Source: Squalus acanthias (taxonomy: Eukaryota). From it: a stretch of DNA of 64,000 nucleotides. Of this stretch, positions 2,171-51,050 are shown one piece after another. A program made the position numbers and the translations under genes. The stretch lies in the NCBI GenBank assembly GCA_030390025.1, contig CM059430.1:62558001-62622000 (forward strand). Direction: 5' to 3'. Under the pieces are notes generated by a model. That model was not told where the DNA came from. It did not search any database and saw nothing but the letters and a program-made list of their open reading frames with translations. The stretch's first letter is position 1, and each line of letters opens with the position of its first letter.

Positions 2171-2199
2171 GAGGCTATATGGCGTCTACGGCGTTATCC

Positions 2200-12222: not shown

Positions 12223-13539
12223 CAAAACCGGTAACTATGTTTTATTTAACTACAGATATTAAATGCACGTATTTACTGGTTTATATAACTGTGTTATGTG
12301 ATTGAAACAAAGTGATTGATTTATATCCCCTGCATTGGGTGAATGAACGTCATTTCATTGGCTAATTAATTTGTCAGTTCAATTAGAAATGTTCAGGAAT
12401 CAATTGAAACAATTGCTTCAAGAACTCTCAGGAATGGCAGCGTGCAACTCTGTGATATTGACATTTAATGGCAGAGGTTACTTTGATCCTGACAGTAAAC
12501 GTGCAAAATATGCTTGGCCAGTTCCTGCTGGCAGTGGCCACAGAACACCATGGGCCAGTTTGGAACCAATTCTCCATCTCACGAACACAACACACGGGAT
12601 AGCAGGCGAGGGAGTGAAAAAAATCTATGGGAAGGATTTGTGACAAGGAAACAGCGAGAACTATGCAACCTCTTCAAAAATAGCTTGGGATCTTTTACTT
12701 CTACCTAAATAGGTAGATTTATCCTTACATAGAATTACATAGAATATACAGCACACAAACAGGCCATTCGACACAACCAGTCCATGCTGGCGTTTATGCA
12801 CCACTCAAGCCTCCTCCCAGCTTTCCTCCAAAAACTCTATCAGCATAATGCTCTATTCCCTTCACCCTCATATGCGTACCTAGCCTCCCTTAAATGCAGC
12901 TATACTCAGTTAATCTTAAATGCGTCAGTTCAATCAAGGCAGAATTCCATCAGTACCATATATTATGTTAGTGCACTTTTCCTGTCAACTTTACCATTCC
13001 TACTGTAAAGTTTGTACGCGGTCCTCGCATTAGAGGCATTGCAGTGCCGCCTCTGGCAGTCGGGTGCAATTGCAGGCTGACGGTTCAGCAGGAAATTTTA
13101 TAGAAATTAATATGGCAATTTACAGGACAGACTGTGTATGAATTTAAATGGTTTAGAGCTACGTCTGCAGGCACTGGTCCAAATATCACCCAGCCTCTAA
13201 CCCTGCTTCACCTGATGATTAAAGTCCATGTTGATTCGCCTTTCCCAGCACTATAGGAGATGGACTGCATTTTATAAAATTTAATTAAACTTTTAATAAA
13301 ATGAGTGTTCGAGTCTTACACAAAAGAAGCAGAGCCAGTGACATATGATAACATGAGCTCCAACAGGATACTAAGCATTTGTGCTGAGGGTTACATCATT
13401 TTGTGGAATATTTCAGCACTTCCTGTTGCTTGTCAGTACTTATCCTACATATAAAACGGACGAGGCCGTCAATTTAAGTTACATTTCTCTTTTGATTTTG
13501 CGATGCCTGTTGGGAAGTTTTCTTCTATGTTATAAAATA

Positions 13540-16500
13540 CAGATTCTTCTTGTTGTTGGATCCTATGAATCCTCGGCCCTTGACCTTGTCCAAGAGGTAC
13601 GAGGTACTTGCTACCTGTATGGATGAGGAAAAGGACTGCACGGAGGATGGACAAACTAACCTGTGCACCGTGGTACAGGGGGCCTTCCAAGTGGGGGGAG
13701 AAGGATGGAATGTGGTAGGGGACAGTTTAGTCAGGGGGATAGACGCTGTTCTCTGCAGCTGTGAAAGAGTGTCCCGAAGGCTGTGTTACCTACCCTGGTG
13801 CCAGAGTTAAGGATATCTCCTCGTGCTGGAGAAGAACTTGGAGTGGGAGGGGGAGGATCGAGTTTGAGGATCTAGGATCTAAAGTAACAAGCAGAACCTC
13901 AAGGGTAATAATCTCTGGATTAATACCTGAGCCTCGCGCAAATTGGCATAGTATCATGCAGATCAGAAAGTTAAATGCATGGCTCAAAGTGTGGTGTGGG
14001 AAGAAGGGTGCTGAATTCATGGGGCAAAGGCACCAGTACTGGGGAAAGGGGGAGGTGTTCCATTGGGACGGGCGATCAGCGTCCGGGTGAATCGAATAAC
14101 TAGGGCTGTAGATAGGGCTTTAAACTAAAAAAAAGTGGGGGGTGGGGTCAGGTGTGGGGAAATTTAGTAAACTAAAGAGAAAGGTCAAGGTAACAGAGCA
14201 GTGTAGCGATTTAGGTAAAATAAGCAGAGTGTAACAGGAAGGGACAGAGAGTTTAACGGTAGCAGTGCAGCAGAGAATCAGGTCAAAGCAGGGAATAATG
14301 GTAAAACATTTAAATTAAAGGCTCTTTATCTGAATGCACGAAGCATTCATAACAAGATAGACGAACTAATGGCACAAATAGCGATAAATTGGTTTGATCT
14401 AATAGCCATTACATGGACGTGGTTGCAAGGTGACCAAGGTTGGGAACTAAATGTTCCAGGGTAATTGACGTTTCGAAAAGACAAGCAGAATTGAAAAGGA
14501 GGGTGGGGGTGTTAACACTGAGAATAAAGGATGACATAAGGACAGTAGAGAGAAAGGATCTCGGCTCGGAAGATCAGGAAGTAGAATCAGTATGGGTGGT
14601 GATAAAGCATAACAAGTAGCAGAAAACACTTGGACATAGTAGCTATACCGTTGGACAGAATATTAATCAAGAAATAGTAGGTGCTTATAACAAAGATATG
14701 CAATAATCGTGGTGGACTTTAATCTTCACATAGACTGGACAAATCAAATTGTCAAAGGTAGTCGGGAGGACGAGTTCATGGAATGCATTCGGCACAGTTT
14801 CCTAGAACAATACATCATGGAACCAACTCGGGAATAGGTTATTTCAGATTTTGTAATGTGTAATGAGACAGGGTTAATAAGCAATCTGATAGTAAAGGAT
14901 CCTCTGTGGCAGAGTGATCATAATATGATAGAATTTCACATTGTCCCGTATTTTCCGATCCCTACGGGTGAGTACTAGCTGTGTACACACCCGTAGGGGC
15001 TTCACAAGTTCCAGTTTCAGGCAGGCGAAGCACATGCGCTGAAGCCTCTTGACAGATCCGCCGCCTGCCCGGGAAAAGGGGCCTCTGCGTGCAGGGAGTT
15101 TTGCTTTCTGCACAAGCTCCGCTCACTGAAAACCTTTAAAAATCTTACGCCTGGTTAATGCAGGTGTAAGTCCTGCTTTTACCAGCATAAGCGTTTAAAA
15201 AAGTAAAAACATATTTTTATCGAATTACGTTTGGGAGTGAATTGCCTAAGTCTGAAACAAGAGTCTTAAACTTAAATGAAGCGAGAAATGTAGGTATGAG
15301 GAGCGAGTTGGCTAAGGTAGATTGGAAAAATAGATTAAAAGGTATGGCAGTAGCTAAGCAGTGGCTAACATTTTAATAAATATTTCATAATTCTGAACAA
15401 AAATACATTACATTGAGAAACACAAACTCCACGAGAAGAGTGTTCCATCCGTGGCTAACTAAAGAAGTTAAGGATAGCATTAGATTGAAAGAAGAAGCTT
15501 GAAACTTGATACTTCTAAAATTCTAACAGGGCTAGACAGACTAAATGCAGGAAGGATGTTCCCGATGGCGGGGAGTCCAGAACCAGTGGGTCACAGTCTA
15601 AGGATAAGAGGTAAGCCATTTAGGACTGAGATGAGGAGGAATTTCTTCACCCAGAGAGTGGTGAATCTGTGGAATTCTCTACCACAGAAGGCAGTTGAGG
15701 CCAATTCATTAAATATATTCATTAAGTAGTTAGATATATTTCTTAAGGCTAAAGGGATCAATGGATATGGGGAGAAAGCAGGGACAGGGTACTGACGTTG
15801 GTTGTTCAGCCATGATCTCATTAAATGGTGGATAAGGCTCGAGCGGCCGAATGGCCTACTCCTGCTCCTGTCTTCTATGTTTCTATGTTTCTATGTAATG
15901 TTCTGAAGAATTCTAGTAAGCCTGAGGATTCGGAGAATTTCAGAAACCAGCATAGGATGAACAAAACATTAATGAAAAGGGAAAACATAGAATATGAGAG
16001 AAAACTAGCAAGAAATAGGAAAACAGATTGTAAGAGCTTCTACAAGTATGTAAAAAGGAAGAGAGTAGCAAAAGTCGAAGTTGGTCCCTTAGAGGCTGAG
16101 ACAGGAGACATTATTATATAAGGACATGGCAGAAACGTGAAACCAATATTTTGTGTCTGTCTTCACAGTAATAGACACAAAAAGCATACCAAATATGGTG
16201 GGGAAGCAAGGGTAGAATGAAGGTGAGGAAATTAACATAATTAATAGAAGTAGAGAAAAAGTACTCGTGAAACTAATGGGAATAAAAGCCGACAAATCCC
16301 CTGACCTGACGGCCGACATTCTAGGGTTCTAAAAGAGTTGGCTGTGAGATAGTGGATGCACTGGTTTTGATCTTCCAAAATTCTCTCGATTCTAGAATGT
16401 TCCCAGCGGATTGGAAGGTAGCTAATGTAACACCGCTGTGCAAGAAAAGAGGGAGAGAGAAAACAGGAAACTTTAGGCCAGTTAGCATGACATTAGTCGT

Positions 16501-17875
16501 CGGGAAAATGCTGGAATTCATTGTTAAGGAAGTGGTATCAGGGCACTCAGAAAATCATAATATGATTAGGCAGTGTCAACGTGGTTTTATGAAAGGAAAA
16601 TCGTGTTTCACAAATGTATTAGAGTTTTTTGAGGATGTAACTAGCAGGGTAGATAAAGGGGAATGAGCGGGTATAGTATATTTGGATTTCCGAAAGGTAT
16701 TCGATAAGGTGACACATAAAAGGTTATTACACAAGATAAGGGCTCATGGGGTTTGGGGTAATATAGTAGCATGAATAGAGGACTGGTTAACGGACAGAAA
16801 GCAGAGAGTAGGGATAAACGATTTAAGGTTGGCAGGCTGTAACTAGCGGGCTGCCTCTAGGATCACTGCTGGGGCCTGAGCCATTTACAATCTATATTAA
16901 TGACCTGGATGAAGGGACCGAGTGTAATGTATCCAAGCTTGCTGATGATCCAAAGCTTGGTTGGACAGAAAGCTGTGAGGAGAACACAAACAGTATGCAA
17001 AGTGATATAGGTAGACTAGGCGAGTGGGCAGCAAGGTGGCAGATGGAGTATAATGCAGGGAAATGTGAGATTATTCACTTTGGTAGGAAGAATAGAAAAA
17101 CATAATATTTTTTAACGTGAGAAACTTTTAAACGTTGGTTTTCAGAGAGATTTGTGTGACCTCGTTCAAAAAATACAAAAAGCTAGCATGCAGGTACAGC
17201 ACGCAATAAGGAAGGCAAATGGCCTGTTGGGCTTCATTGCAAGTGGGTTGGTGTATAAGAGTAAGAATGTCTTGCTACAATTGTATTGGGCCTTGGTGAG
17301 ACCACACCTGGAGTATTGTGCACAGTTTTGGTTTCTTTATCTAAGGAAGGGTATACTTGCCTTGGAGGCGGTTCAACGAAGGTTCACTAGATTGATTCCT
17401 GGGATGAGAGGTCTGTCCTATGATGAGAGATTGTGTAGAATGGGACTATACTCTCTGAAGTTTAGAAGAATGAAAGGTGATCTCATTGAAACATACAGAT
17501 TCTGAAGGGGATAGACAGGGTAGATGCTGAGAGGTTGTTTCCCCTGGCACGTGTGTCTATAACTAGGGGGCATAGTCTCAGGATAAGAGGTAGGCCACTT
17601 AAGACCGAGATGAGGAGACATTTCTTCACTCAAAGTGTTGTGAACCTTTGGAATTTTCTGCCCCAGAGGACTGTGGATGCTGAGTCTTTGACATAGTTAA
17701 AGCTGAGATAGATAGATTTTTGGACTCCATGGGAATCAAGTGATATGGAGATCGTGCGGGAAAGTGGAGTTGAGGTCAATGATCAGCCATGGTCTTATTG
17801 AATGGCGGAGCAGGCTCGAGGGGCCGTATGGCCTACTCCTGCTTCTATTTCTTATGTTCTTGTGTTCTTATGTTC
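13540..17875 (+). mobile_element. Degenerate near full-length CR1 (ORF1 GDS motif, APE, RT) carrying a MITE fragment (14940-15230) and a CR1 3' fragment (~15502-15896)
   Basis: VVGDSLVRG; RGFMKGKSC; LVRPHLEYC; ttcttatgttc tail. Confidence 0.85.
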
Positions 17876-18699
17876 TGGTTTCGATTGGAAACATTCGGTA
17901 CTCTCCACACTTGACCACAAACATCAGATAAACTGAAGGGTGAGTGATTGTATAAATCAATCAAAAATTTGATGTAATAATTTGTGGCGTAATGTATTAC
18001 GCACAAAGCCTTACCTACATTTTCTCAGTGCGGCGTCCGTGGACAACTGCAATATGAGAACGCTTTAGGATACCCTTCAAATAACGGTGAAGCCTCCCAT
18101 ACACTCGAATCAGAAGAATATTACCCTTCACTTTATGGAGCATAGTTTTGGCCATTGAGCTCTTGACCTGGAAGCTCACTAGACGCCCCTTTTAAAAATC
18201 GAGCGAATATATCGGCTATGAAACCAATTTGCACAGTTTCATCGTGGCTACCAACATTTTCCTCCAAACATTTTAGGCAGGACGCGCTGATAGCAAGAAA
18301 TTGCATTTGCAAAGAAGCCCTGACCTCAAACACACATCGGGTGCTCTCTGAACGAATCATCAAAGCTCTATTTCCTAAATATTCAATAAGGTTATTTTAA
18401 GGTGAAAATAAACCCCATCGTTATCATTGACGGTCTGATTCAAGTCACTGTGTTCGGAATAGCTTCGGGTCTCCCGAGATATAACACATCACAATGAATG
18501 CGATCTCCCCAGTATCACGTGAAATGTCCAGCAATGCGTGGAATTATAGAGAACAATCTCTAAACACGCAACTGCTGTGTTAATCAGTCACTTTCTCACT
18601 TTCAGTGTTTATCATAAAATATTGCTACTGTTATTTAAGAACTAATTATTAACAATTTATAAATGTTCCAGTTTGTTCTGCTTTGGCGTCTGTAGTCTA

Positions 18700-19020
18700 T
18701 TGTGTGACGTTAACAGCAGCGTACACCTTAAGGGAAGTGTAGGAATAGTGGCTCAGCGATCAGTGGTAAATTCTCTATTTGGAATTTCGGAAATTATTTT
18801 TCCTAAGCTTTTGTTGACCGTGACAGAGTTGATTCAATGGCTGCCTTAGAGCAGACGGTCATCAAATTTCACTTCACAAACGAACCCTATTTTTAACCAA
18901 CAGACACAGGATGTCAAACGTCATTACGAAGCATTTCGGTTTAAATAATCAGCAAACCCTTCCTCCAGTGGCAAGCAGACAGTCGGTGCAGTCAGTGATC
19001 AGTTGAATCTTTTGCTCGGA
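18700..19020 (+). promoter_or_regulatory. Putative proximal promoter of gene 1
   Basis: Unique sequence 5' of the leader with TGACGT, GGAAGT (18733), TTTCACTTC (18867), TTTCGGTTT (18934) and TTTAAAT; all retained in gene 2. Confidence 0.35.
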
Positions 19021-19081
19021 ATGTTGTCGACTGTGATGTTTCTTTTCCTGTTCCTGTCTCTCCCGGGGATCATTTGCGCAG
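19021..19081 (+). CDS. Gene 1 exon 1, signal peptide MLSTVMFLFLFLSLPGIICA
   Basis: ATG at 19021, hydrophobic core, phase-1 donor G|GTACC at 19082; conserved in paralog at 45553. Confidence 0.85.
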
Positions 19082-22000
19082 GTACCTGTTTATTCTCAAA
19101 TCGAGCTGTCTTAATAAAAAGCATACCTGAAGTAGTTACCACAGAAATTGAAAGAAATATGGTTAGTCGGTCTGTATTCTTTTAACGCATTTTCATTTCC
19201 ATGTAGAAATGCATTTTAAAGTGTTTGGTTCCGCATAGAATACAATTAAGCAAACTTTGAATATCTTTTCCAACAGCTGCTGCGGACTCTTCGATCAGCG
19301 TGCCTCAAAATCCCAGAAAAGTAACTAAATTAAGAGGGTCAAACATCACCTTCCAGTGCGTAGTCCCAGGGTCCCTTCGCAATTCAGGGATAGAAGTGTG
19401 TTGGAGGAAAGAGGGTGAGAATGAATATCTGCAAAGAGGAGCCGATAGCAGAAAAAGATTTACTCTGAAAGATAATGCAGTCAGTGTCTTTGAGTTACTG
19501 AACGTGACTTTTCGGGACTCTGGAATCTATCATTGCGCAGTGATCCATCAGGGAAGAATTATTGGAAATGGAACAGGATCACATCTAACTGTGAGCGGTA
19601 AGTGACCGGAGTGAGCGGGAACATCCAAATGTATCAAATTTAACAAGGATGATGTTTTGTCATTGTTTTATTGCACCGTCTTTGATATTATAAAACAATA
19701 TATTAATACATTTACAGTGAAACTCTGCACACAACTACTAATTATACGCATAATATGACACTTCATTTGCTGAGGTGTGTAAAATTCCAGCAATATTAAT
19801 CAGATTAAGTAACATGTTGCTGGATTCATCTCAAAACGTAATTTTTACATCAGACTTCTGAAGATGGAAGTTGCGGAACAAATTCCAAATATATTGATGA
19901 CTGGCTGAAAATATTTTCTATTAATGCACCACTCCCGCCATAAACACGGCTCTCTTGGGGAGACAGACAGACAGATCCAGAGTGACAAACAAACAGAAAG
20001 CGACTGAGGATACCATTGTTCATCCATATCTTATGATCATTATCTCCCCAGTAACCTGATTTTCTCCATTCTGTCTTCCGCAGCTGCCCCAACTCCATTG
20101 AAGTTTTCCCTGAGGACACCCGAGAGCAATTCATCTGCGTTTCTGACTCTTGTGTGTGAAACGGCTGAGTTTTACCCGGGCGATTTTATCCTCGTTTGGT
20201 ATAAAAATGGCGTCGAAACCGCAACTGGGATAAATGACACTAAACGGCAGAACACTGAGGGACTGTATGAAGTTTCCAGCTCTTTTGAAGAGACGCAGCC
20301 TGTGACGAACGGGGCTGTTTACATCTGTTTGGTATGTCATGCCTCCCTCCGGACTCCCGCCATTGCCATCCACACAGTTATCAATTGCGACCCAGGTACG
20401 AACGCAGGCCAAGAAGTGAGTTCAGCTACTGTTATATTCTGAAAGGGTATTTCATAGAGTTTGTTCATATCGATAAACATAAATTTAGTTTGAAAATACG
20501 CCCAGGAAACAGCAAAGCAAAGAGAAAATCAATGTTTCAATGTAAAATATTATTGACCGAGACCCGTTGTGAAACCGAAGGATTATTATCGCCCTTCACC
20601 CAGTAACTGCCTATTAAACCTCATCAGCTTCCAATTGTTAAAACAAATACGTGCAGGCTGTTTTTCTCTTCTATGCAATTATTTTACATTTCTTGTTTAT
20701 TACTAAACAATCAAACGTTTGCTCTTGTTAAACTGAATTCATTTTTCCCATTATCTGGTTCCTTGCACTAGTTGCAGGACTAGAAGCGACTGTTCGTTTG
20801 TCTGGTCTCGACCGTCTCTGAATCCCGCCTCTGATGGGCGATTCACGGTGGGGTCTTTTACACCGTCATTGTTCCCAAACACCAACTCATTTCCTGTGTT
20901 CCCAGGTCTCGCATTTCAGTTACGCAATGCCCTTCTTACCCCCCGCCCCCCGGTGCTGGATAAGCCGAGCAACCAAGAACACACAGACTAAAATTCCATT
21001 CTCTTCGTAAATCCCAGTACTCTCACACACGACAACATGATTAATCCGAGATCTTACCTTCTCCCATTCTGTTCAAGCTTACATTCCCCTCTAACTTTCA
21101 TGGTCATGATCCATTCCATTGGTACCTCCTGGCCACAACTCTGCCGACCCCACATCCAGCCTCACAAATATTCTGTCAAACATTATTTTCTGTCATATTT
21201 CTTTAATTAATTTATAACAATTATAAACAAGAGCTTATCACTTCTATCCGATTATATTTCCTCACCTGTTTATTATTAATACTTATTCAATTTATTTTGT
21301 TTAAGATCGTTGTATTCTTTACCATTGCCTGCTGTCCTTGTCCCAAGACTGTTACCAGGAGCTGCAGTCACGCTGTTTGCACTTGGGCTTCTTCCAATGC
21401 AGTTCCTGATCCTCATCCCCCTATCGGCTAATTCTACTGTAGAGATCCGAAATTAACCCCTGGCCAGCTTTTACCCCTCACCCGTCCATGTCATAACGGG
21501 TTTAATTGGAATATGTCTCATAAATCTCATTTAACCTGTGCCCGCAACCTGGCGACAGTACAGCCGGTTCGATACGTCATATTGTGAAGAACTCTTTGCC
21601 CCGAAGGGCAACAGTCAATGAACCATTGCCCGTTGATAGCCCTTACTATTCAGTGACCTTCTTACTGTAATAAACAAAGGTCAGGTAATTCAAAGGGTAT
21701 TCTTAACCGATTGCAGCAACCCAGAATTTTGTGCCCGCAACGAAGAAACTCTTGTGACGCATTTTCCTCCAATTTCCTCAAACTATATGTTAATAAATAA
21801 AAAACGTCAAGAACAAGTCTTTTGGTCATGGGAAATTGATCTCTCTCGTATTCTAACTCTCCTAAAACAGTGCTGTGAGATCCCTAACCCGGTAGTGCGT
21901 TGTGCAGATTAATCCCGAATGTCTCCTCCATCCGACGAATAAGTTACTTTAAAGATGATATCTAAAAGAAATAACATTTTGTATTTAATCTTTCTTATTG

Positions 22001-25000
22001 CCGATCTATACCGCGGAGTTACTGAAAGAAACTTCTTAGTTTAACCAATAAACTATCTTGAGGCCTATTCTTAGCTAACGCCCGCCATAACTTAAAGTTC
22101 CTATTAATCTTACAGGTAGTGGCGATAATTCACTTTATATCTTGGCTCCTGGGTGTGCGGTGGGTGGATTGGCGTTTCTGGTGCTAATGATTTTCATTGG
22201 GACGCGATGCCGACTGCAGAAGAATGAAGGTAAGATCAACTGTAAGCCCTTTATGTTCTTACAAAACCTCCGGGTTAGTGACAGTCTCTGGGTTACATTG
22301 GGGAAGGAGAAATCGATTTGGACTTAAAGATGAAAACAGTGTTATCTGTTTCAGGGAGCACGGATTGTTCCAAATACATTTGAAAATGCTGAATTGCTCA
22401 AAGAATCGTAATAAAAATGGAAATAATTGTTTGAATGTTTGCAACAGAAGTGCCCCCTTTGCAGCATAATAAATGACATGTGCCCTGACACACAATCACT
22501 TTCCAACCCATTCTGTTATGGATGCGCAACTAGTTTGATTGAAAGAGTCTGAGTCTCCGGCCGGGGAATGGTTGTACACAAAAGAACATAACAATAAGGA
22601 ACAGGAATAGGCCGGACTGCCCTTGAGCCTGCTCCATCATGCAATAAGATCATGGCTGATCTTCTACCTCAACGCCACTTTCCCGCCCTATCCCCATATC
22701 CCTTGATGTCCTTAATGCCCACAAAGATTGCCTTAGTTTCCGAGAAATAGCCAAAAAATGCACCATTGCTGATCGCTACAAGGGCTGGGATTTCAAACAC
22801 TGTCGGCACAATCCGGAATTGAAAATCATGTCCGGTTTTGTCTGACTCTAGAAATGTTTTTGCAACCACTGACATGGAAACTGAGTAAATGTTGCAATCT
22901 TTCAATATCATTAAATTTCATTCGTTTCCAGGTAAAGAAGAATGTGTAAGGGGAACGAACCGCCTTCAAGAGCTGGTACGTTCATTCATCCATCCCGGTA
23001 GACGGTTGAATTGTCAAGAAAGATTGGTATAATGGAAAGATTATATCATAGTCACGTCAGAACAGTTTAAGTCTACTGACTAAAAGTATTTGTCCGGTCT
23101 TAGTGAGTCATTCAAATCATGTTTAGAAATGTGCTTGGCACCCGGTGCGTTGCTGAAAAAAAAGTAAAATGGTAGAGAAGAAACCGGCTGTTTCGTTGAA
23201 AATGTACCTGGCTAATAATTGTTTATAGAATCATAAGAACATAAGAAATGGGGGCAGGAGTAGTCCATTCGGCCCTTCGAGCCTGCTCCGCCATTGAATA
23301 GAATTATGGCTGATCTTCTACCTCGAATCTACGCTCCTGCACTTTCTCTATTTCCCTTGGTTCCCTCAGTAGCCAAAAGTCTATCCATCTCTTTCTTTAA
23401 TATTCTCACCGACTGAGCATTCACAGCCCTCTGGGATGTAGAATTCCAAAGATTCACAACACTTTGAGTGAAGAAATTTCTCCTCATCTCAGTCCTAAAT
23501 GACCGACCCCTTATTCTGAGATTGTGAACCCTAGCTCTAGACTCCCCAGCCGGGGGAAACAGCCTCCCAGCATCTACCCTGCCAAGCAACTTCAAAATTT
23601 TAGACATTTCAATGAGATCACCTCTCATTCTTCTAAACTGTAGCGAATAAAGGTTTAGTCTACTAAATCTCTTCTCCTAGGATAATCCCCCCATCCCAGG
23701 AATTAGCCTGTTGAACCTTCATTACATTCCCTCTAAGGCAAAGATATCCTGCCTCAGATAAGGATTACTCCAGGTGTGGTCTCACCAAGATCATACATAA
23801 CTACAGTAAGACTTATTTCCTCTTATACACCAATCCTTTTGTAATTAAGGCTAATATACAATTTGTTTTCCTAATTGCTTGCTATACCTGCATGTTGACT
23901 TTCTATGATTCGTGTATAAGGAGACCCTGCTCCCTCCGAATACCAACATTTTCCAATCTCTCACTATTTAAAAAATATCCTGTTTTTCTATTTTTCCTCC
24001 CAAAGTTGATAACTTCACATTCCTGCACGTTATATTCCATCTGCCATGTACTTGCCCATCACTTAACCTGCCTATATACCTTTTCAGCCTCTTTGCGTCC
24101 TCCTCACAACATACTGTCCCATCGAGATTTTTATCTTAAGCAAACTTGAATAACTTACACTTGGTCCCCTCATCTAGGTCATTGATATAGATTGAAAATA
24201 GCTGAGGCCCAAACAATGATCCCTGAGATATCGCACTAGTTATAGCCTGCCACCCGAAAATTACCCATTTATTCCTACTGTCTGTTTTCTGTCCGTTAAC
24301 CAATCCTCAATCCACGCTAATATATTACCTCCAATCCCATGACCCCTAATTTTGTGTAATAACGTCTTGTATGGCACCTTATCGAATGTGTTTTGTAAAT
24401 TCAAATACACTACATTCACTGCTTCCCCCTTATCTACTGTAAGATTTGGATCACAGGTCACACACAGACTACCCAAAGGATCTTAGGTGTTGTAATGCAT
24501 TTTATTAAGGAGTGAAAGTTTAAGTTAAGTACAACACGCAATCAAGATAGACATAGTAGACATACGATCGGACAGACGGCTGGCGTGCGCGAACAGCTCT
24601 TCCCTTCCCTTCACCATCTGTGCTCAAAGCTCTTTAGATATCTCTTTTACTCTCTTTTTAGGGGTGGGCCAAGGGTAGATTATCAAAGATACAATCAACA
24701 ACCTTTCGAGCACACAAAGAGCAGACAACTAGTCTAGAAACAACGTCACTGCCACGGTGTAGAATGTTATAAATTCCACAAGGAACCAGGAACTAAGCAA
24801 ATTCTAAGCGTCTTTCCAGTTATTCTAAAACCAGTCTGAAGAAACTTTTTTGTCTCAAGTTATTTTTTCCAATTCATGATTTCTTACAACTCCCCACCTT
24901 GAGAAGGAAATATCCTATTGACTTCTCACAACCCACTTTGACTAATCTATATCGTTCTAAGTTATCGGCCCGCTGATAACATTCGTGCACAGGGATGCTG

Positions 25001-28000
25001 GCTGCCATTATAAGTTACTTCCCACCAATCGTAGTCCGTAAATTTGCTTATTGCTTTCTCAACTTGGGCGTTAGTTGTTAGGGAGACTCAGTAATGAAGA
25101 TTAACCCCTTCCTTACGGTCCATTCTTTTGAGGGGGAGGAGCAACTTCCGACCCTTCACACAGGTTCAGTTCACTGTTCCGGTGTTCCAATTCTGCCCCG
25201 CCTGGGGTATCCTCTGTTTCTTCTATCTTTTCTGATCTTACCCCGCCTGGGGTCTCCTCTACGTTGCTTCGGATCTTCACTTTCAGTGTGCTCAATTAAT
25301 TTCTTCGTGCTGGTTAGTCATAAGCATGTGTACATAATTGGCTTGTGCATCAAAGTCTTACTACACGTGTTACATATATCAAATACACTATCAATACATG
25401 TTGGAGAACTACCAGCGCGTGTGAAATAATACGAACATAGGGTGTGCTGATATATTAAGCTCAATATCCCACCAGTGCGAATCTTCCCCTATACTGTCAA
25501 TTTCAATATCTATTCTCGAGTTGTCTTGCTCCAAAAGAAAAAGATGCTTTAGGGAGGAGTTCATTCACATCACAAGCTCACTGAAGCCCTTAGACAGAAG
25601 GGGAATGTCATACCTGAATTATGCAGCTCACACTTAAGTGTCTCATTTAATGTCAGTTTCAGTTGAGCATAGGTTTTGATACTGAGTAAAACGTGTTGGT
25701 TGATGGTTGTGGGTAGATGTGGTGTGAAGCAGAAACTGTGTGCTATTAATTGGACGGGTCCTGTTAGACCCATAAAGTATGGTAGTTGTGATAGTAGTGA
25801 CACAGGAGGCATCACCAAAACCACCTCATACTGGATTCGTACTGGCTTTTCCCTCGCTCTGTTACCTACTGAACACAATTATTACAGTCACAGTTAAATT
25901 CAGTCTTACAATCATTATAAGCGACACTACAGTTTCACATCGAATCAACAGGCCATGGATTTAAAAGATTCTCCAGATCTCTTTCACCCGTATCCAGCTT
26001 GTGGATAATTCTTGCTAAGTATGATTTCTCCCTAGCCTCAATTGTCCCAATCAAAATTCCGTGTAATTCTCCGCTTTAACTTCAATTTCAATCCCTCTAA
26101 TAGGTACCATTATGTTTAACTCTATTTTGATTGTTTCATTAATTAGATAGTTTCTCGATGGAGTATGTGTCAGTGCTTTAAAAATTGTCTCACTCTCCTG
26201 AGCCACATTAACCATTTCATGTCATGCTGTTGTCAAGTAACTGAGCATGTCTGAGACCCGTTCTTCAGTGCGGATTCACCATGCATTTCCGGATGATAAT
26301 TGCTTCATACATAACAAATCAATATCATGCCACATGTGCTATCCGATACAAGCCATTCTTGGGCTTTCAGGTGATCTTATCAAAAGATTGTCTGGAGATC
26401 TTTGCTCATCTTCCATCGCATGGTTCCGATGTCTCGGGTAGTGGTCAGACTATCAAATTCAGTTTTCTTAAAAAGTTCATTATAGGCAGGGACACAAATG
26501 TTTCCAAGAGAAAGCTATCAATTTACTATTCTGAACTATACTTTCTTGACTTTCACTAGAAAGTTAGGAAAATTCCCATTTGGTAGTGTAATTTTCCTGT
26601 TTCAAGCTTACATCTTAAGTCGGGCATCCCATTAATAATTATTAATATCTCATTCATGAGCACTGGAGCAACTTTACTGACCAATACAATAATAAAGATA
26701 GAAAACATAGATCAAAGTTGTTTTGTGAACCAATTTAAAAAAATCCAGCTGCCAGCAGAAAGGGTTATCTGCTTTGCAGCTTTTCAGAAGGCGGAGCAAA
26801 TATTGTCAGACACAGACAATTGTGTCACTTCACGTAAATTTAAAAACTTTCCCGATCGAAAAAGACAGTTGGGTTTTGACAATTTAATAGGTTAGTTAAC
26901 TTTAATAATTCCAATTTAATTCAGACCAATATTTTATTAACTAAACACGATACAGAAAAGATAAAATACATCAAATTAAATCGCAGTAAGTTACATAACA
27001 TTTCTCTTTGTTCTTTCTTCAGATGCCTTTTCAAATGACAGTAAAAATATTGACTACAACTGGAGAAAAATCAGTTTTCACACTTAAATTAAACACATCA
27101 AACTGATTTGGAAAATTCACGAAAGCAACCGCAACTCCAAGGTTAAATCTTAGACTGAAACTTAATTATTTGTTAAACAAACTTTTTGTTTTTCTCAGTT
27201 TTTCCACACCAGCTTAACTTAAATTGTAGTTCAAAGTTTTATTTTTCAATTCTGGGTGCACAATCTTATTCGAACATTCTTAAAACTTCCAAAATCCAAG
27301 ACAAGACTACAACGTGTTAAATGGCTTTTAGCACATAGAAGTGGGTGGAGCTAAAACACACATAACAGACACTTTCTTTTAAAGACAGACTTTCAGACAA
27401 AACGAATACTGTTACTTCCAAAACACTCACAGATGCTTTGCAAAAGGACATCAAAATTCACACTGAAAGGAAATAAAAACCAATAGAACAGCAGAAAAGA
27501 GACATGATCTTCCTTTCCTCTTTTATTCCATCCTAATTATTTTATCCTTTCACCCATAAACCAATTTTAGTTTCTAATGTTTTCTACTGAATCTCATTCT
27601 GTACTGATTACTGCCACTGGAAATCTGAGAGATTAGAGTGGGTGTCTCCAGAACCATCGGGGCACATGCGCGGGTGACTGAATTGAGATTGTGATAGTCA
27701 ATAGTCATCCGATAATCACCCGGTTTTCGAACCGGCCAAACTAGGGAGCTGGTCGTGAAAGTGCCTTTGCAAACAACACCCTGCTTTAGCTCCAAGGGAA
27801 GGGATCCTTGTATAGTTGACTGGATTGAACTGTCAAAGTCCAATAAAACTTGGGGCTCACCCTTTGTTGGATCGGGGTGGGGATCGTGAATGATGGTGGT
27901 GGAGGAGCCGGATTTGAATCACATTAATTGTTGACGGGCTCCAGAATCAACAGTTTGGACTACCGGTCTCCCACCACCATTATATCGGAGAGGGGAAATC

Positions 28001-31000: not shown

Positions 31001-32478
31001 ACTGCCCTGAGGAACTCCTGCAGTAATGTCCTGGGGTTGGGATGTTTGACCCCAACCACCGCAACCATCTTCCTTTGTGCTAGGTATGACTCCAGCCAGT
31101 GGAGAGGTTTCCCCCCGATTCCCATTGACTTCAGTTTTACTAGGGATCCTTGATGCCACACTCGGTCATAAGCTGCCTTGATATCAAGGGCAGTCACTTG
31201 CACCTCACCTCGGGAATTCAGCTCCTTTGTCCATGTTTGGACCAAGGCTGTAATGAGGTCTGGAGCTGAGTGGTCCTGGCGGAACCCAAACTGAGCATTA
31301 GTGAGCAGGTTATTGTTGAGTAAGTGCCGCTTGATAGCACTGTCGATGACACTTTCCACAACTTTCAGAAGTACGATTTATTTACTAATGCCAGTTTCTT
31401 TAAGATCCTCATTCTAACTAGAACCTTGGTTCCCCACTATTTTGTCATGTTCCGTAAAGACAGATACAAAATATTTGTTTAATATCTGCCATTTCATCTA
31501 TTTTCCTGATTTATACTGTGTCCGACACTAGATCTACTGTTAGGGGACCGATACTCTACTCCCACCAGTGTTTTCTTTTCCTTGTTGTTTCATAGCTCCA
31601 ACAAAGTGAACCTTTCCCTCTACTGTCTTTATCCCATTCTTTATTATCAGGGCTACCGGACCTCCTTTTCCATTTTGCCTATCTCTTCTAAAAGTTAAGT
31701 ACCCTGCCATATTTAGTTCTTGGATTTGAAAAAAAAAGTTAGGTTCTAAAGCTGCCGCTGATTTAAACATTTCTGTAACACTGTGTTGCAGGATGAACAT
31801 TGACAGGTTTGAATATAAGTTACAGGGCCCACAGTGCCTTAACATTCGCTCTTATCTAAATATATATGAACTATGGTTTGTGCACTTGATATCTTGCCTC
31901 GGCCAATCCGTTAAATGTTTGATCAGCGGTACGTAAACTGGTGAAGGCAATGAACTAGCCACATAACCAAACTCTTTCTTTCTGACCCATGCAGGAAGCA
32001 GCGGCTGAGACCGTGCATTATGCTGCATTAGATTTAAACAGAAGCCGGAAAACTCCAAGACGGGAAATTGAAGCGGAGAGAACCGTGTACGCTCAGGTAG
32101 GACTGAGTAACAGATCAGAGAAACAAAGATCATCAGTGTAACATCAACATTCATGCGCTAGCGTGGGGCATATGTTTGCGCTGACTTTGACCGTGTGTTG
32201 TATCGAAGGATATTTGCGTGTCCTTCTAATGCCTGCTTTGAGCAGCAGTCCAGACAACTTGCAAAACGACCAATTAACAATATTTCCAAACATTGGCTTT
32301 ACAGACCGAACAAGGGACAGCCCGTGACAAACTGACGTACGCAGCTATAGCATTGACTGGCTCAGAGAAAACGGGGAAATGCAAAAATAACGAACGAAGC
32401 ACAGAGTATGCCCAGCTGAAGACCAAAAAACAAAGAGGAGTAACAGAGGCTGTCTACACAGAAGCAAGAATCAATTAG
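19021..32478 (+). CDS. Gene 1: spliced VJ-C1-TM receptor with ITIM/ITSM-type tail (NKp30/SIRP-like, predicted inhibitory); exons 19021-19081, 19277-19597, 20084-20395, 22116-22229, 22932-22975, 31995-32096, 32305-32478; 375 aa
   Basis: All introns are GT..AG with compatible phases (1,1,1,1,0,0). The summed exons are 1128 nt, open to TAG at 32476-32478. Domain order is signal peptide, V-set, C1-set, hydrophobic TM, tyrosine motifs. Confidence 0.85.
19277..19597 (+). CDS. Gene 1 exon 2, Ig V-set domain with germline-joined J-like G strand
   Basis: Acceptor ttttccaacag; ITFQC...W...DSGIYHC V-set motifs; GNGTGSHLTV diglycine J-like motif; donor G|GTAAGT. Confidence 0.92.
20084..20395 (+). CDS. 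Gene 1 exon 3, Ig C1-set domain
   Basis: Acceptor ctgtcttccgcag; LTLVC..FYP...W.KNG...EGLY.VSS...YICLVCHASL are C1-set hallmarks; donor CAG|GTACG. Confidence 0.92.
22116..22229 (+). CDS. Gene 1 exon 4, transmembrane (no charged residue)
   Basis: Acceptor atcttacag; SLYILAPGCAVGGLAFLVLMIFIGTRCR; donor AAG|GTAAGA. Confidence 0.88.
22932..22975 (+). CDS. Gene 1 exon 5, short cytoplasmic exon (GKEECVRGTNRLQEL)
   Basis: Acceptor ttcgtttccag, donor CTG|GTACG; homologous exon in gene 2 at 49953. Confidence 0.75.
23231..24437 (-). mobile_element. CR1 3' half in gene 1 intron 5 (5' remnant at ~31360-31730)
   Basis: cataagaacataagaa tail; ORFs 23329..23628 and 24261..24476 are RT-like. Confidence 0.85.
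24438..24888 (-). repeat. 3' LTR (451 bp)
   Basis: TGTAAGA...TCTTACA inverted ends; polypurine tract aaggtggggagt (minus strand) adjacent at 24889-24900. Confidence 0.88.
29813..29830 (-). other. Primer-binding site complementary to the tRNA-Leu 3' end
   Basis: Minus strand TGGTGTCAGAAGTGGAAT vs tRNA-Leu(CAA) 3' ...ATCCCACTTCTGACACCA, one mismatch. Confidence 0.8.
29832..30192 (-). repeat. 5' LTR (truncated)
   Basis: Homologous to 24438-24770; PBS immediately adjacent. Confidence 0.85.
30281..31360 (-). mobile_element. Family-B LINE RT fragment
   Basis: ORF 30265..31359: QFGFR, LDIKAAYDRVWH, MFADDC, YKAQVRSVMEYS. Confidence 0.88.
31995..32096 (+). CDS. Gene 1 exon 6, cytoplasmic, VHYAAL (ITIM) and TVYAQ
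   Basis: Acceptor ccatgcag, phase 0; EAAAETVHYAALDLNRSRKTPRREIEAERTVYAQ; donor CAG|GTAGG. Confidence 0.82.
32305..32478 (+). CDS. Gene 1 exon 7, terminal cytoplasmic exon, LTYAAI / TEYAQL / AVYTEA
   Basis: Acceptor ttggctttacag; same frame as ORF 32293..32478; TAG stop. Confidence 0.82.
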   Translation, partial: TEQGTARDKLTYAAIALTGSEKTGKCKNNERSTEYAQLKTKKQRGVTEAVYTEARIN

Positions 32479-32809
32479 TAATACATTTTAGCTGCAGAAG
32501 TTAGTTTTTTGGTGTTTACTGATCGCATGCCAAGCCATATCAACTGCACGCCGATGTCTACCATGCGATACCATCCTTCCGAGAGGTAACGCATTCTGGT
32601 GATGTATCAGAGAATGCAGTTTATAGTTATTACTTACTGTTCAATAATTTGATGTATTTTATTTCAGCCACTTTTAAGAACAAAGTAACTTTCCTGACAT
32701 ACTTTAATGTTAAATTTGTATTATTTACCTGTTTGCAAATATCTACGCTTTCGATTAAAATAATACGCTAATTGCCTCGCTGTACACAATTATCATCATA
32801 CATGAATTC

Positions 32810-45552: not shown

Positions 45553-45613
45553 ATGTTGTCGACTGTGATATTCCTTTTCCTGTTGCTGTCTCTCCCGGGG
45601 ATCATTTACACAG
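45553..45613 (+). CDS. Gene 2 exon 1, signal peptide MLSTVIFLFLLLSLPGIIYT
   Basis: ATG 45553, donor CAG|GTACC; 61 nt like gene 1. Confidence 0.82.
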
Positions 45614-48600
45614 GTACCTGTTTATTCTCAAATCGATCTGTCTTAATTAAAAACATACCTGAAATAGTTACCACACAAATTGAATGAAATATAATTAGTC
45701 GGTCTGTATTCTTCTAACGCTTTTTCATTTCCATGTAGAAATGCATTTTAAAGTGTTTGGTTCCGCATAGAATACAATTAAGCAAACTTTGAATATATTT
45801 TCTAACAGCTGCTGCGGACTCTTCGATCAGCGTGTCTCAAACTCCCAGAAAAGTAATGATATTAAGGGGGACAAACATCACCTTCCAGTGCTTAGTCCCC
45901 GAGTCCCTTCGCAATTCAGGGATAGAAGTGCGTTGGAGGAAAGAGGTTGAGAATGAATATCTGCAAAGACGAGCCGATAGCAGAAAAAGATTTACTCTGA
46001 AAGATAATGCAGTCGGTTTATTTGAGTTACTGAACGCGACTATCCGGGACTCTGGAATGTATCACTGCGCAGTGATCCGTCAGGGAAGAATTATTGGAAA
46101 AGGAACAGGATCACATCTAACTGTGAGCGGTAAGTGACGGGAGAGAGCGGGAATTTCCAAATGTATCAAATGTAACAAGGATGATGTTTTGTCATTGTTT
46201 TATTGCACCGTCTTTGATATTATAAAACATGATATTAATACATTTACAGTGAAACTCTGCACACAACTACTAATTATACGGCATAATATGACGCTTCATT
46301 TGCTGAGTTGTGTAAAATTCCAGCAATATTAACCAGATTAAGTAACATGTTACTCGATTCATCTCAAAACGTAATTTTTACATCAGACTTCTGAAGATGG
46401 AAGTTGCGGAACAAATTCCAAATATATTGATGACTGGCTGAAAATCTTTTCTATTAATGCACCGCTCCCGCCATAAACACGGCTCTCTTGGGGAGTCAGA
46501 CAGACAGACCCAGAGTTAAAAACAAACAGAGAGCGACTGAGGATACCATTGTTCTTCCATATCTTATGTTTAATATCGCCCCAGTAACCTGATTTTCTCC
46601 ATTCTCTGTTCCACAGCTGCCCCAACTCCATTGAAGATTTCCCCCAGGACACCCGAAAGCATTTCATCTGCGTTTCTGACTCTTGTGTGTGACACGGCTG
46701 AGTTTTACCCGGGCGATTTAACCCTCGTTTGGTATAAAAATGGCGTCGAAACCGCAACTGGGATAAATGACACTAAACGGCAGAACACTGAGGGACTGTA
46801 TGAAGTTTCCAGCCCTTTTGAAGAGACGCAGTCTGTGCCTAATGGGGATGTTTACATCTGTTTGGTAGCTCATGTCTCCCTCCGGACTCCCGCCATTGCC
46901 AGCTACACAGTTACCAATTGCGACCCATGTACGAATGGAACAGGTGAGGTCAGCTGCAGTTATATACTGAAAAGTGTACTTCATATAGTTTATTCATATT
47001 GATAATCATAAAGATTGTTTAAAAATAAACTCCCAGGAAATATCAAAGCAAAGAGAAAATTAATGTTTCAATGTTAAATCTTGTTGACACTTAACCATAG
47101 TATAGCCGAATGATTATTATCGTCCTCCACACAGCTCTCTGTTAAACCGCATCAGCTTCCAATTGTTAAAACAAAAATGATCAGGCGATGTACCTCTTTT
47201 ATACAATTATTTTCATTTCTTGCTGATTACTCAAAACTCATTTGTTTCCCTTTATCTGGTTCCTTACAACCAGGACCAAGAGCGGCACTCGTTTTTCTGG
47301 TTTCGAGCGTCTCCTAGTGGGGCTCCTGAGCCCGGCCTCTGATGGGCGATTCACTGTGAGGGGTTTTACACTGTCAATTACTCCCAAACACAAGCTCATG
47401 TCCTGTGTTCCCAGGTCTCACATTTCAGTTACGCAATTGCCTTATACCCCCGCCCCCCCCGCCCCCCCGCCCCCCAGTGCTGGATAAGCCGAGCAACCAA
47501 GAACACACGCTAAAATCCCATCAAGTTTCCAAATCCCAACACTCCCACACAAGACAACATGATTAATGTTAGGTCGTACCTTCTTCCATTCTGTTCAAGA
47601 CTACCTTCCCCTCCAACTTTCGTCCTGGCCACAGCTCTGCCTACACCCCTTCCAGCCAGACAGTCTCCCCATCCCTTTTTCTGTCTCAAATCTCTATCTT
47701 GCATCACCTCTCCAAAAGCCTCTTTCACCTAGTACATGTTGCCTTCCATCTTCCCACATCTCTAAGTACTTAAACAATGGGAAGAGATAGATTTAGAATA
47801 TATTAAAAATGGAACTTGTGTGGGAGCCAATACACAACATTTGGAACTGCATAAGGAGAGAAATAATAGAGATTTAATTCATTAGAAGGGAAACAGACAA
47901 AATGCAAAACATTGCTGTATAGACATTTACATAGACCGTTACAGACAGCAGAATGAATAAAGTGTAAGACAAACATACAAATAGAAAGATTAAGAAAAAA
48001 GAGGTGTAAGACAAAGATAGAGAGGATGGCACAAAAGTAATTCGCAAGTGGGAAAGGAGCAAAGATACAATTTCAAGAAGAGCAACACCACAGGAGACTG
48101 ATGATATTATAACCCCCGGAGTCACCTACTTGTTATTGAATAGCCTATGCTCAAATGTACTGTACCGTTGGAAATCCATATATAATGCTTATTTCTCATG
48201 GCTTTGCGCATGGCGAGTAAGAGGTTGTCCTGCTGCGTAGGAAGGAGTGTGGTTTTCCTGGGGATGTAAGTCGGAGCCGTGGACACCTGAATCGAAAGAA
48301 TTTGGAAATCTTTTCATAAGGGAGTGAAATTAAGGAAGTCTTTTTGAATGGTTGCTGGAGAACACGGACAACTCATGGGAATATAAACGAACACATAAAA
48401 TCCATGTTTGAATGATTAGAGGAACCCAATGTGTTGTAAAACCGGGTATATCGTCTGCCTTACAAACATTCTCAGTAAAACATTATTAAGCCTTCAAGTT
48501 CCTGTATTTGATACATAACACAGGTTCATCTTTGTTATCCGATTATATTTCATATTTTGCTGATTGTTACTCTTTGTTTTGTTTCCATGTTAAAATGTTT

Positions 48601-49987
48601 ATTCCTTACCATTATCTGGTTTTGCTTCACCTGGACGATTACCAGGAGCTACGATCAAGTTGTCTGCTCTTTGGTTTCTCCCAATGCAGTTCCCGATCCT
48701 GATCCGCTTTTTGCCGATTCTGAATGAAGAGTTCTGAAATTAACACTTTGGCCTACTTCTAATCTTGGCGCAGCGGTCTGAAGTGGGATCTGTCTCATAT
48801 ATTTAATTTAAACTGTTCTTACTGTCTGACTGCTTTTCAGCCGGTTACATCATTTTTTAAGAACTGCTAACCTGGGCAGACAATAATTAATAAACCATCT
48901 CCTTCACTATTCAGTGACATTCTTACTTCAATAAAGTATAGACGTGTGAACTGATGTTTTAACCGATTTCTGCAATTCGGCATTTTGTAGAGGGAATGGC
49001 GAAACAATTGTCACCGAATTGCCTGGGATTACATCAGACAGTAAGTAAAGAACATAAGAAAAGTTTACGATAAGAACAAGCCATTCGTTCCAGGGAAACA
49101 TTCCGCTCGTATATTACCTCTCCTACACCAATCTCTCTTCGCAGTTAATGCCATAATTGTCTCATCCATTAGATGCATAAGTCTCTCCCAATATTACATC
49201 TAAAAACGAATAACAGTTTTTTAATTAAAACATCCTTATTGCTGTTGGATACTACGGAGTTACTAAAAACATCAATAGTTCAACCAATGAACTCTGCTGT
49301 GGCCTCGTTTACGAAACACTCGCCACTATGTACAACTTAATATATTTGCTCCTATTATTCTTGCAGATAGCGTCGGTATGTCCCCTTACTACTCGGGTTT
49401 TAGATATGCGGTGGATGGATTAGCGTTCCTGCTCCTCCTGATCATCATTGGGATGCACTGCCAGTTGCAGATTAATAAAGGTAAGATCTATTGTAAGCAT
49501 TTGATTTTCATACAATACTTCAGCGAGCTCCGGGGGACGGGGGAGTGAGTGTTTCCGAGTAGCGCAGAGGAAGGAGAACTAAATTATGACTTAAAGTTGA
49601 AGGCAGGCTGCTATCTGATTCCAAACAGCAACAGATTCAGCTCTTTAAAACGCAGAAATACTCGCAGAATTTAAATTAAAAGGATCTGATTATCTGGATA
49701 TTTGCAACAGAAATTTCCACTTCGCAGCATGATGAATGGAACGTATTTTGAATAGGTGTGAGACTCCAGCCCGGAATGGTTTTACAGCATTCCTGGTCGC
49801 TGCAGTGAGATTTCAAACACTGACAGCACAATCTGAATCTGAAAACCATGTTCGGCATTATAGCGACTCCAGAAAGGTCTTTGCAAGCATTGATATGCAA
49901 ATTCAGTAAATATTTCAATCATGCATTATGATTAAATTGCATTGCTTCACAGGGAAAAATTGCCGTAAAGGGCCCGAACTGGCGTGA
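45553..49987 (+). CDS. Gene 2: paralogous VJ-C1-TM receptor with TM Arg/Asp and short tyrosine-free tail (predicted activating); exons 45553-45613, 45809-46129, 46617-46943 (or 46928), 49367-49480, 49953-49987; ~285 aa
   Basis: Intact GT..AG phase-1 junctions, open frame to TGA 49985-49987; each exon homologous to gene 1. Confidence 0.8.
45809..46129 (+). CDS. Gene 2 exon 2, V(J) domain
   Basis: ITFQC..W..DSGMYHC..GKGTGSHLTV; 321 nt, canonical splice sites. Confidence 0.9.
46617..46943 (+). CDS. Gene 2 exon 3, C1-set domain
   Basis: LTLVC..FYP..W.KNG..YICLVAHVSL; the orthologous donor at 46929 is weak (T|GTACG), while a strong in-frame donor CAG|GTGAGG lies at 46944. Confidence 0.85.
49367..49480 (+). 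CDS. Gene 2 exon 4, transmembrane with Arg and Asp (SGFRYAVDGLAFLLLLIIIGMHC)
   Basis: Acceptor ttcttgcag, donor AAG|GTAAGA, 114 nt like gene 1. Confidence 0.82.
49953..49987 (+). CDS. Gene 2 exon 5, truncated tail GKNCRKGPELA*
   Basis: Acceptor ttgcttcacag; 2 nt shorter than the gene 1 exon (frameshift), TGA stop, donor GT changed to AT. Confidence 0.7.
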
Positions 49988-50639
49988 GGAGCTGATACAT
50001 TTAATCATTCATCCCGCAATAAGTTCAAATATGAAGAAAGATTGATATCATAATCACGTCAGAGTAGTTTGTCTATTTCCTAAAAGTATTTGTTCCGCTT
50101 AATGGGTCATTCAAATCGTATTCAGCAAAATATTTGATGCCGTCGGGAAAGGATTTCACTCAGCGGGCGAAATTGGTTTTCGGAAAAAAATGCGAGCGGG
50201 GTGTAAAACCGGATGCCGAATCGCTATCGCCTGTTTCGCGCTACCGCCGAAGAACAATTTCAGCCGCGCCCCCGGTGCGTTGCTGGTTTAAGTGATTATC
50301 TAGCAGAGAAGAAAACGGTCAGCTTCGTTGAAAATGTACCTAATTAATAACTGTTTATAGATTCAATATTATTTGTAATTGGGCAACTCAGTATTCTGGT
50401 ACTTACGCTCATTTAAACATTTCTGTAACATTGTATTGTAAAACGAATATTGATAGGTTTAATTATTAGTTATAACGACCACAGTACTCACCGGTCTTAA
50501 CATTCGCACTTGTATCACTGCATTAATTGTGCTTCCTTCCCTTTCTATCTAGCCTATGTTGTTCTGTTCAATGTTTAACCAGCAGTCTGTAAACTGGTGA
50601 AGGTAATGAACTAGCCACGTTAGAAAATATTTAATTATT

Positions 50640-51050
50640 TCTGGCCCATGCGGGTAGAAAAGACTTAGATTCTTGATATACTGCAGTAGGTTTGAGCAGA
50701 ATTAAGTTAACTGCAAGATGTAACCTTGAAGAGGAGAGGACTGTGTTCCATCAGCCGGGGCTGGGTAGCGGATCAGAAAGACACAGATCACCAGTGCAGC
50801 ACCAATATTCATGCGATAACTGAGACTACAAGGTTGGGTGACTCGGGTCGTGCAGTGTACCTCAAGTTGTCTGTGTGTTATTCTGATGATTGTTTTCGGC
50901 AGCAGTCCACAAAATTGGCAAAACGAACAAATTACAATATTTCCAAACACGGGTTGACAGATAAAACAAGGCACCGAAGCGACTCTAGATTTGACCGGGT
51001 CGAAAAATCGGAGAATTACAAAAAAAAACAGGGTAACATATTCTAGTGTT
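50640..51050 (+). pseudogene. Decayed homologues of the ITIM-encoding exons 6-7 downstream of gene 2
   Basis: Alignable to 31981-32400 (ctggcccatgcggg vs ctgacccatgcagg; acaatatttccaaaca shared); acceptor AG>GG, donor GT>CC, tyrosine motifs eroded. Confidence 0.7.

Follow-up and report, generated by a model that had tools for sequence, protein, structure and literature searches.

Non-rearranging VJ genes named so far include those for NKp30, PRARP and UrIg (PMC10751288). UrIg2 of elasmobranchs has been put forward as the candidate target of RAG (PMC12227049), and the NITR of ray-finned fish have been proposed to be relics of the pre-RAG gene in a source that reports holostean linkage to runx1/donson and points to a lack of evidence for NITR in cartilaginous fish (bioRxiv 2021.06.11.448072). 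In the CHIR, LILR and KIR families, inhibitory and activating classes are defined by an ITIM-bearing tail versus a charged transmembrane (TM) segment, according to PMC1458963.

This paper describes a VJ-C1 gene, hereafter gene 1, in the window, i.e., the whole stretch of 64,000 nucleotides of Squalus acanthias DNA that was analyzed. Gene 1 is probably an inhibitory member of a large family of paired innate receptors in cartilaginous fish, with its tail-less, Arg-TM neighbor as activating partner, and the family as a whole is likely an inhibitory/activating innate receptor system rather than an antibody ancestor. To our knowledge, innate receptors that inhibit or activate shark leukocytes are, with the exception of NKp30, largely uncharacterized.

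Gene 1 (19021-32479, forward strand) comprises seven open exons with canonical splice sites, which upon joining and checking of the reading frame encode a product of 375 residues with leader, V, C1 and TM segments and a tail with five ITIM/ITSM-like tyrosines; an AATAAA motif is located at approximately 32811, 3' of exon 7 (Table 1). The V exon (321 nt) and the C1 exon (312 nt) are open, in phase 1-1 and bordered by AG and GT. The first-pass annotation, which had reported a joined V-J exon followed by a C1-set exon at 19277..20395, is confirmed in this observation and exact in both exon borders, although its span covers only two of the seven exons. The V exon ends in the peptide that this annotation quoted, and thus carries its own diglycine J-type G strand, and a single C1 exon lies between V and TM, rather than the two C1 domains of SIRP. 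Leader and V are joined in contigs of the same-species runs X1 and X3, and V and C1 in contigs of X3, with net gaps of 195 nt (leader-V) and 486 nt (V-C1) that equal the predicted intron lengths exactly. These contigs, which stem from one study and of which the RNA status is a guess, are 91-96% identical to gene 1, and therefore derive from paralogues or alleles. The three same-species runs yielded paralogue-level contigs only, LINE repeats swamping the long intron; no contig in these runs was identical to gene 1 or covered the C1-TM and tail joints.

Table 1. Exons and exon remnants of the two V-C1 genes, in positions of the window.
Feature	Position	Strand	Remarks
Gene 1 exon 1, leader (signal peptide)	19021..19081	+	ATG, hydrophobic run, GT donor, phase 1; joined to V in X1/X3 contigs
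Gene 1 exon 2, unsplit short V with J-like G strand	19277..19597	+	Pfam V-set; model pLDDT 91
Gene 1 exon 3, C1-set domain	20084..20395	+	Pfam C1-set E 1e-9; PDB matches
Gene 1 exon 4, TM without charged residue	22116..22229	+	
Gene 1 exon 5, first cytoplasmic exon	22932..22975	+	Splice sites, frame; match to relatives P0003, P0006
Gene 1 exon 6, tail: VHYAAL (ITIM) and TVYAQT	31995..32096	+	tblastn with P0002 tail; frame
Gene 1 exon 7, tail: LTYAAI, TEYAQL, AVYTEA, stop	32305..32479	+	39 genome matches
Gene 2 leader exon	45553..45613	+	
Gene 2 V exon	45809..46129	+	84% protein identity to gene 1
Gene 2 C1 exon	46617..46928	+	85% identity to gene 1; donor weaker, in-frame alternative 15 nt further on
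Gene 2 TM exon, Arg (and Asp) near outer end	49367..49480	+	
Gene 2 last coding exon, 11 residues and stop, no tyrosine	49953..49988	+	
Decayed tyrosine-tail exon remnants behind gene 2	50563..50974	+	72-77% DNA identity, stops

A second V-C1 gene (gene 2, 45553-49988, forward strand) is present in the window, and the decayed tail exons behind it resemble the decayed ITIM exons of activating CHIR genes in chicken (PMC1458963). The window contains a segmental duplication (11314-23129 versus 37808-50128, and 352-5477 versus 33607-38698; 87-91% identity), the units of which carry LINE fragments as well as the gene and the region upstream of it. Broken reverse-transcriptase fragments of CR1/L2-type LINEs, which are ordinary repeats, were found at 7146-9433, 16283-17873, 23227-24437, 30274-31377, 42760-44336, 53723-55738 and 61607-63066.

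The domain assignments made earlier were upheld by Pfam. The V domain scored best as V-set among six families (E 6.2e-10) and the next exon is truly C1-set (E 1e-9, 39 bits against a cut-off of 21); the first-pass annotation had named a C2- or I-set score as the outcome that would count against it, and for the gene 1 C1 domain C2-set_3 reached E 0.078 and I-set gave no match. In the PDB, the C1 domain is related to Ig constant domains, UrIg2, TAPBPR, MHC II beta and SIRP-gamma. A separate sequence-profile search of the PDB was dominated by multi-Ig proteins. The reported lack of recombination signal sequences (RSS) at the V exon was reproduced, as no RSS-like site was detected in 19000-20500 under the thresholds used, with 11 such sites in the whole window on both strands; as a control, the same scan placed a site at the end of V in each of the 10 rearranging V loci scanned in this genome. 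RSS-like matches in 12 of 80 paralogues (anywhere in 650 nt) occur at about the chance rate and were dismissed.

Searching the genome with the V exon revealed at least 128 matches (150 of 183 candidates scored), 123 of them in blocks at 57.5, 61-63, 67-68 and 72-77 Mb of contig C6; the C1 exon gave at least 146 matches, and the last tail exon 39. After merging of fragments, 112 of 115 V positions on C6 have a C1 match at most 25 kb downstream, and 98 of these V are stop-free, both numbers being lower bounds. In the 10 kb fetched around each of 80 V matches the V was unsplit in all cases, C1 lay within the stretch in 77, and most had a single C1 match. Three loci (L107, L109 and L108) retain open frames although their V is without the F-strand cysteine or without both canonical residues.

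Relatives with 42-66% identity were found in horn shark, sevengill shark, smooth-hound, catshark, zebra shark, bamboo shark, sawfish, skates and rays, and elephant shark, and carry automatic names as diverse as SIRP-alpha-like, tapasin-related-like, B7H6-like, CD276 and MHC II beta-like; the tail type of gene 1 recurs in relatives from Heptranchias, Pristis, Mobula and Callorhinchus. Since both holocephalans and elasmobranchs have the family, it is as old as the chondrichthyans. The best matches outside this group, among the 20 of 150 that were named, have much lower significance (E about 1e-17 to 1e-23), and include pig SIRP-beta, a lungfish SIRP-like protein, skink and tortoise proteins, and a coelacanth V-C1-TM protein. 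No paper with a title or abstract opening on this family was found in the literature searched, which mostly excludes subscription immunology journals, and an earlier description is possible.

The family shows the feature by which paired IgSF receptors are recognized, namely similar ectodomains attached either to an ITIM tail or to a charged TM with a short tail, and the top feature matches in the Atlas were SIRP-alpha clusters (0.97). A TM profile matched 43 genes (41 of the 80 fetched and the two in the window; the other 39 fetched genes gave no TM match), and a single TM column contains Arg in 16 and Gly or Ala in 27 of these. The last tail exon is absent in 15 of the 16 Arg genes and present in 22 of the 27 others (Fisher p 2e-6), and the single Arg gene that has it carries a stop inside the tail. 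Mapping of TM class on the V tree gave 18 changes over 58 genes, with the classes interleaved, and seven independent pairs on this tree showed the same direction about 6.9 times and the opposite direction never (sign test median p 0.016; 42 genes). In one instance (L049 and L050), the V of an Arg gene is identical to that of a tailed gene. Among 75 database proteins of several species, a set that includes partial gene models, two or more ITIM-like motifs occurred in none of 16 with Arg or Lys at this place in the TM versus 31 of 59 others (p 8e-5). A TM Arg without tyrosine tail thus recurs across subfamilies and species, with V exons common to both types. Taken together, these sequence patterns likely represent paired IgSF receptors whose ectodomain is of the VJ-C1 type and which occur in sharks, rays and chimaera alike. 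No tail was detected for 5 of the 27 non-Arg genes, nor a TM match for 39 of the 80 fetched genes, so that some members may be neutral, secreted or adhesive. One conserved subgroup (loci L102 and L084; proteins P0019, P0023 and P0024) has a TM led by PWW and a basic tail rich in Cys and Lys that is devoid of ITIMs and, in the three proteins, of tyrosines; it is automatically named B7H6-like and its role may differ.

Variation in the V domain is larger in the A', B-C and D-E regions than in the F-G loop. Pooled pairwise comparisons, of which the pairs are non-independent, gave a V dN/dS of 1.80 (1.12-3.26) versus 1.04 for C1 in the subfamily of gene 1. V dN/dS exceeds that of C1 in three subfamilies, and is above 1 in that of gene 1 alone (0.69 and 0.68 in the two others). 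The assignment of gene 1 to a paired system builds on its exon structure and tail motifs, the TM classes and their link to the tail, the size and clustering of the family, the sharing of V exons, and this V dN/dS above 1.

Established paired-receptor biology suggests which adaptor, phosphatase, ligand and cell type such a system may employ. The proteins would be monomeric V-C1 rods on leukocytes, in which the V domain, held out on the C1 stalk, may bind a self cell-surface ligand as a monomer. Upon engagement, the ITIM/ITSM tyrosines would be phosphorylated by Src kinases, and recruitment of SHP-1/SHP-2 to the tail would dampen the leukocyte. Arg-TM members may pair with an ITAM adaptor of the FcR-gamma/CD3-zeta type, an assignment that rests on the position of the TM Arg in FcR-gamma-coupled receptors, and could be triggered by pathogen mimics or by altered self. 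An arms race may then have driven duplication and gene conversion, and may repeatedly have turned inhibitory genes into activating ones. Our best guess for the ligand is a surface protein that is either polymorphic or mimicked by pathogens and is recognized by NK-like or myeloid cells.

The V domains of the family have a shape of their own. The G-x-G strand is present in 76 of 82, and the J Phe/Trp in none of these 76; its position is taken by Asn in 56, of which 53 have it within an N-glycosylation sequon (N-G-T in gene 1), where a glycan is predicted to hinder Fv-type pairing. Cys-Cys spacing is 53-58 versus 63-74 in the IgL, IgH, TCR and NCR3-like V of the same genome. The gene 1 V model (pLDDT 91) lacks the C' and C'' strands, and this shortening also accounts for its resemblance to IgNAR and I-set folds: IgNAR V was nearest by Foldseek, and VIA-align Z values for V only were tied (VNAR 13.7, NCAM 13.6, CD79b 13.4), so that structure does not rank ancestry. 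The V-C1 model of relative P0006 aligned best with B7-H6 (VIA-align Z 16.8, rmsd 2.5, 193 aligned), followed by PD-L2, B7-H3 and butyrophilins; Foldseek returned Fab chains only, at rmsd of about 9-10, because Fab chains crowd the library. SIRP and NKp30 are absent from these structure-match tables, which excludes nothing. The family V profile scored 51 bits with the coelacanth V-C1 gene, 39 with NCR3-like V, the best named V type in the genome, and 11-23 with IgL, TCR and IgH V, IgL being lowest, in support of the NKp30-like G strand noted earlier.

Phylogenetic trees, in which long branches and near-duplicates were left out and outgroup labels (own-genome loci; P0119, P0147, P0161 and P0163) are motif-based assignments rather than database names, placed the V of the family in a clade of its own (99/98). 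Its C1 groups with the coelacanth gene (91/81), outside the Ig/UrIg C1 group (90/92, not starred). Approximately unbiased (AU) tests rejected union of the family with IgL-lambda (p 0.012 for V, 0.005 for C1) and none of the unions with SIRP, NCR3 plus coelacanth, B7H6-like, IgNAR or all antigen receptors (p 0.27-0.42), so that with about 100 columns the sister group is not separable. The coelacanth protein (XP_064425669, P0157) matches the NCR3-like cluster best with its V and the family best with its C1, which hints at an ancestor with an NKp30-like V and a C1; in this V-C1-TM protein the TM contains a Lys and the tail is nearly absent, and a word search for its relatives found only the protein itself.

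Contig C6 carries TCF25 (28.2 Mb), FTO (42.9 Mb) and NUP93 (52.6 Mb), which are human 16q genes; these markers flank the clusters on one side, the closest being 5 Mb away from the first family member. NCR3-like genes are located elsewhere, on C26, as are TCR/IgH on C29, IgL on C13, UrIg2-like on C3, B7H6-like on C10 and SEP-domain genes on C11 and C8; genome searches for CD47 and COQ9 families gave no match and were uninformative. Several of these loci are of interest in themselves. Dozens of matches at 13.5-17.1 Mb of C26 (L142, L199-L206) form a large cluster of NCR3/NKp30-like single-exon V, and this contig, which has a UrIg-like C1 at 11.5 Mb, is probably the MHC chromosome. An unsplit V with C-x-C in the G strand and several C1 exons at 132.09-132.12 Mb of C3 (L156) fits the description of UrIg2, with further copies of similar C1 on C1615. 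Other unsplit, full-length VJ exons (L114, L140 and L149 on C3676, C262 and C3224; L148 on C284) cluster loosely with IgL/TCR and, as antigen-receptor relics, may be better candidates than the family; several lack the J Phe, and L148 retains it, with C1 2 kb downstream. Finally, a small cluster of divergent C1-set exons lies at 145.2-145.4 Mb of C5 (L155), and C29 contains germline-joined IgH VDJ exons (L120, L127), a known shark feature.

Four other explanations were weighed against the reading as a paired innate family. Orthology with SIRP, in a cartilaginous-fish form that has a single C1 where SIRP has two and whose inhibitory members would bind CD47, would account for a J-like V without J Phe, a C1 stalk and a tail of four or more tyrosines, and is in line with the automatic name of many relatives, the Atlas matches and an AU p of 0.31 for both V and C1 (three SIRP-type V sampled); moreover, pig SIRP-beta has no closer locus in this genome, 27 of its 42 weak matches being C1 exons of the C6 family. 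It is nonetheless unlikely, since family and SIRP V were not joined in free trees, the C1 count differs, and pig SIRP V has no match among family V at E 0.001. Synteny points the same way: NSFL1C flanks SIRP in tetrapods, but neither this linkage nor that to PDYN was found on C6, the SEP-domain genes lying on other contigs and a search for opioid peptides (PDYN-type marker) giving one weak match, on C9. B7-like ligands or adhesion molecules of B7-H6/tapasin-like V-C1 type, with incidental tails, would fit the structural alignments of V-C1, the B7H6-like, CD276-like and TAPBPR-like names of some relatives, and the AU p of 0.31 for union with B7H6-like V; however, the diglycine G strand is absent from B7 V domains, this genome has a B7H6-like locus of its own (by the motif assignment of this analysis) on C10 near an RPS13 match, and the Arg/ITIM dichotomy is a receptor feature, which makes this very improbable.

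Closer to the interpretation of the first-pass annotation, which had seen in the gene the likeness of a pre-RAG VJ-C1 ancestor, the family might be a surviving sister of the VJ-C1 gene split by the RAG transposon, a PRARP/VJC1-type relic near the ancestor of antigen receptors. The non-rearranging architecture stands, with an unsplit VJ exon, a true C1 and phase-1 introns as in Ig/TCR, and the chondrichthyan-wide age, the AU p of 0.28 with all antigen-receptor V, the Foldseek proximity of V to IgNAR V and the Fab chains listed for V-C1 are compatible with it. The ancestral framing is weak, however, for a recent duplicate among more than 100 fast-evolving paired receptors, with a shortened V that has neither the J Phe/Trp on which V-V pairing relies nor the Cys-Cys spacing of antigen receptors, a C1 outside the Ig/UrIg group and a V-C1 that aligns first with B7-H6. 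The chromosome bears human 16q markers instead of MHC, NCR3-like, UrIg2-like or antigen-receptor loci, and the published candidate is UrIg2 (PMC12227049); a sister of the RAG target is thus quite unlikely. As for a germline-joined IgL or otherwise secondarily joined antigen-receptor gene, which the annotation had itself raised as a refutation, single-exon V-J IgL and IgH genes do exist in this genome, and the AU tests did not reject union with the second L type that is germline-joined at the 0.05 level (p 0.08 for V, 0.09 for C1). The separate clade, the TM and ITIM tail, the lack of FGxG and the lowest profile scores with IgL V nevertheless render this reading hardly credible, and identity with IgL-lambda is refuted by the AU tests.

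As a paired receptor family, these genes could further be the main polymorphic NK/myeloid complex of cartilaginous fish and, at the same time, a living branch of early gnathostome VJ-C1 signaling receptors with an NKp30-like V on a C1 stalk, one gene of which persists in coelacanth; SIRP, through duplication of the C1, and perhaps the single-domain V of IgNAR type may have arisen from this branch. This wider proposal is tentative and rather improbable. More than 100 paired receptors, present from chimaera to sharks and rays and automatically misnamed, are direct candidates for the recognition of missing self or of pathogen mimics in the most ancient lineage that has MHC and antibodies. VJ-C1 architecture can serve as a germline-diversified innate system, and therefore does not by itself identify a pre-RAG ancestor.

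Nor is this architecture new in itself, since UrIg/UrIg2, PRARP and VJC1 have been published. UrIg and UrIg2 share the non-rearranging VJ exon followed by C1 domains, but are described in PMC12227049 as single genes of the MHC/antigen-receptor complex with liver and gill expression, encoding disulfide-linked Fc-like dimers with three to eleven C1, whereas the family has one C1 and the UrIg2-like gene lies on C3. CHIR, LILR and KIR likewise form about 100 clustered loci in which inhibitory ancestors repeatedly turned activating and left decayed ITIM exons (PMC1458963); their C2-type ectodomain is unrelated. PRARP (of chicken and others) and VJC1, compared by description only, are non-rearranging VJ(-C1) membrane receptors, and gene 1 has each element of their usual definition (unsplit VJ plus one C1, TM, ITIM/ITSM). 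The PRARP tail carries ITIM/ITSM motifs; these genes are, however, described as few, and PRARP as MHC-associated, whereas the family lies off the NCR3-bearing C26, on C6 with its 16q markers. NITR are clustered paired receptors with V-J in one exon, in which the second domain is of the I (intermediate) type with its own J instead of C1-set. NKp30/NCR3, a single-V-domain protein encoded with the MHC, has the same G-strand pattern, no J Phe and, as in the putative activating members here, a TM Arg, but no C1, and its cluster lies apart. SIRP-alpha and SIRP-beta1 have an unsplit J-like V without J Phe, a C1 stalk, a multi-tyrosine inhibitory tail, charged-TM short-tailed partners and clustered genes. 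SIRP partners have a mid-TM Lys for DAP12, and the family differs in its TM Arg near the outer end, its one C1, its V Cys-Cys spacing of 53-58 versus 59-65 (three SIRP-type V measured), its more than 100 genes and its other linked markers. The family probably works like SIRP, NITR and CHIR, but fails the defining features of SIRP, NITR, UrIg, NCR3 and IgL.
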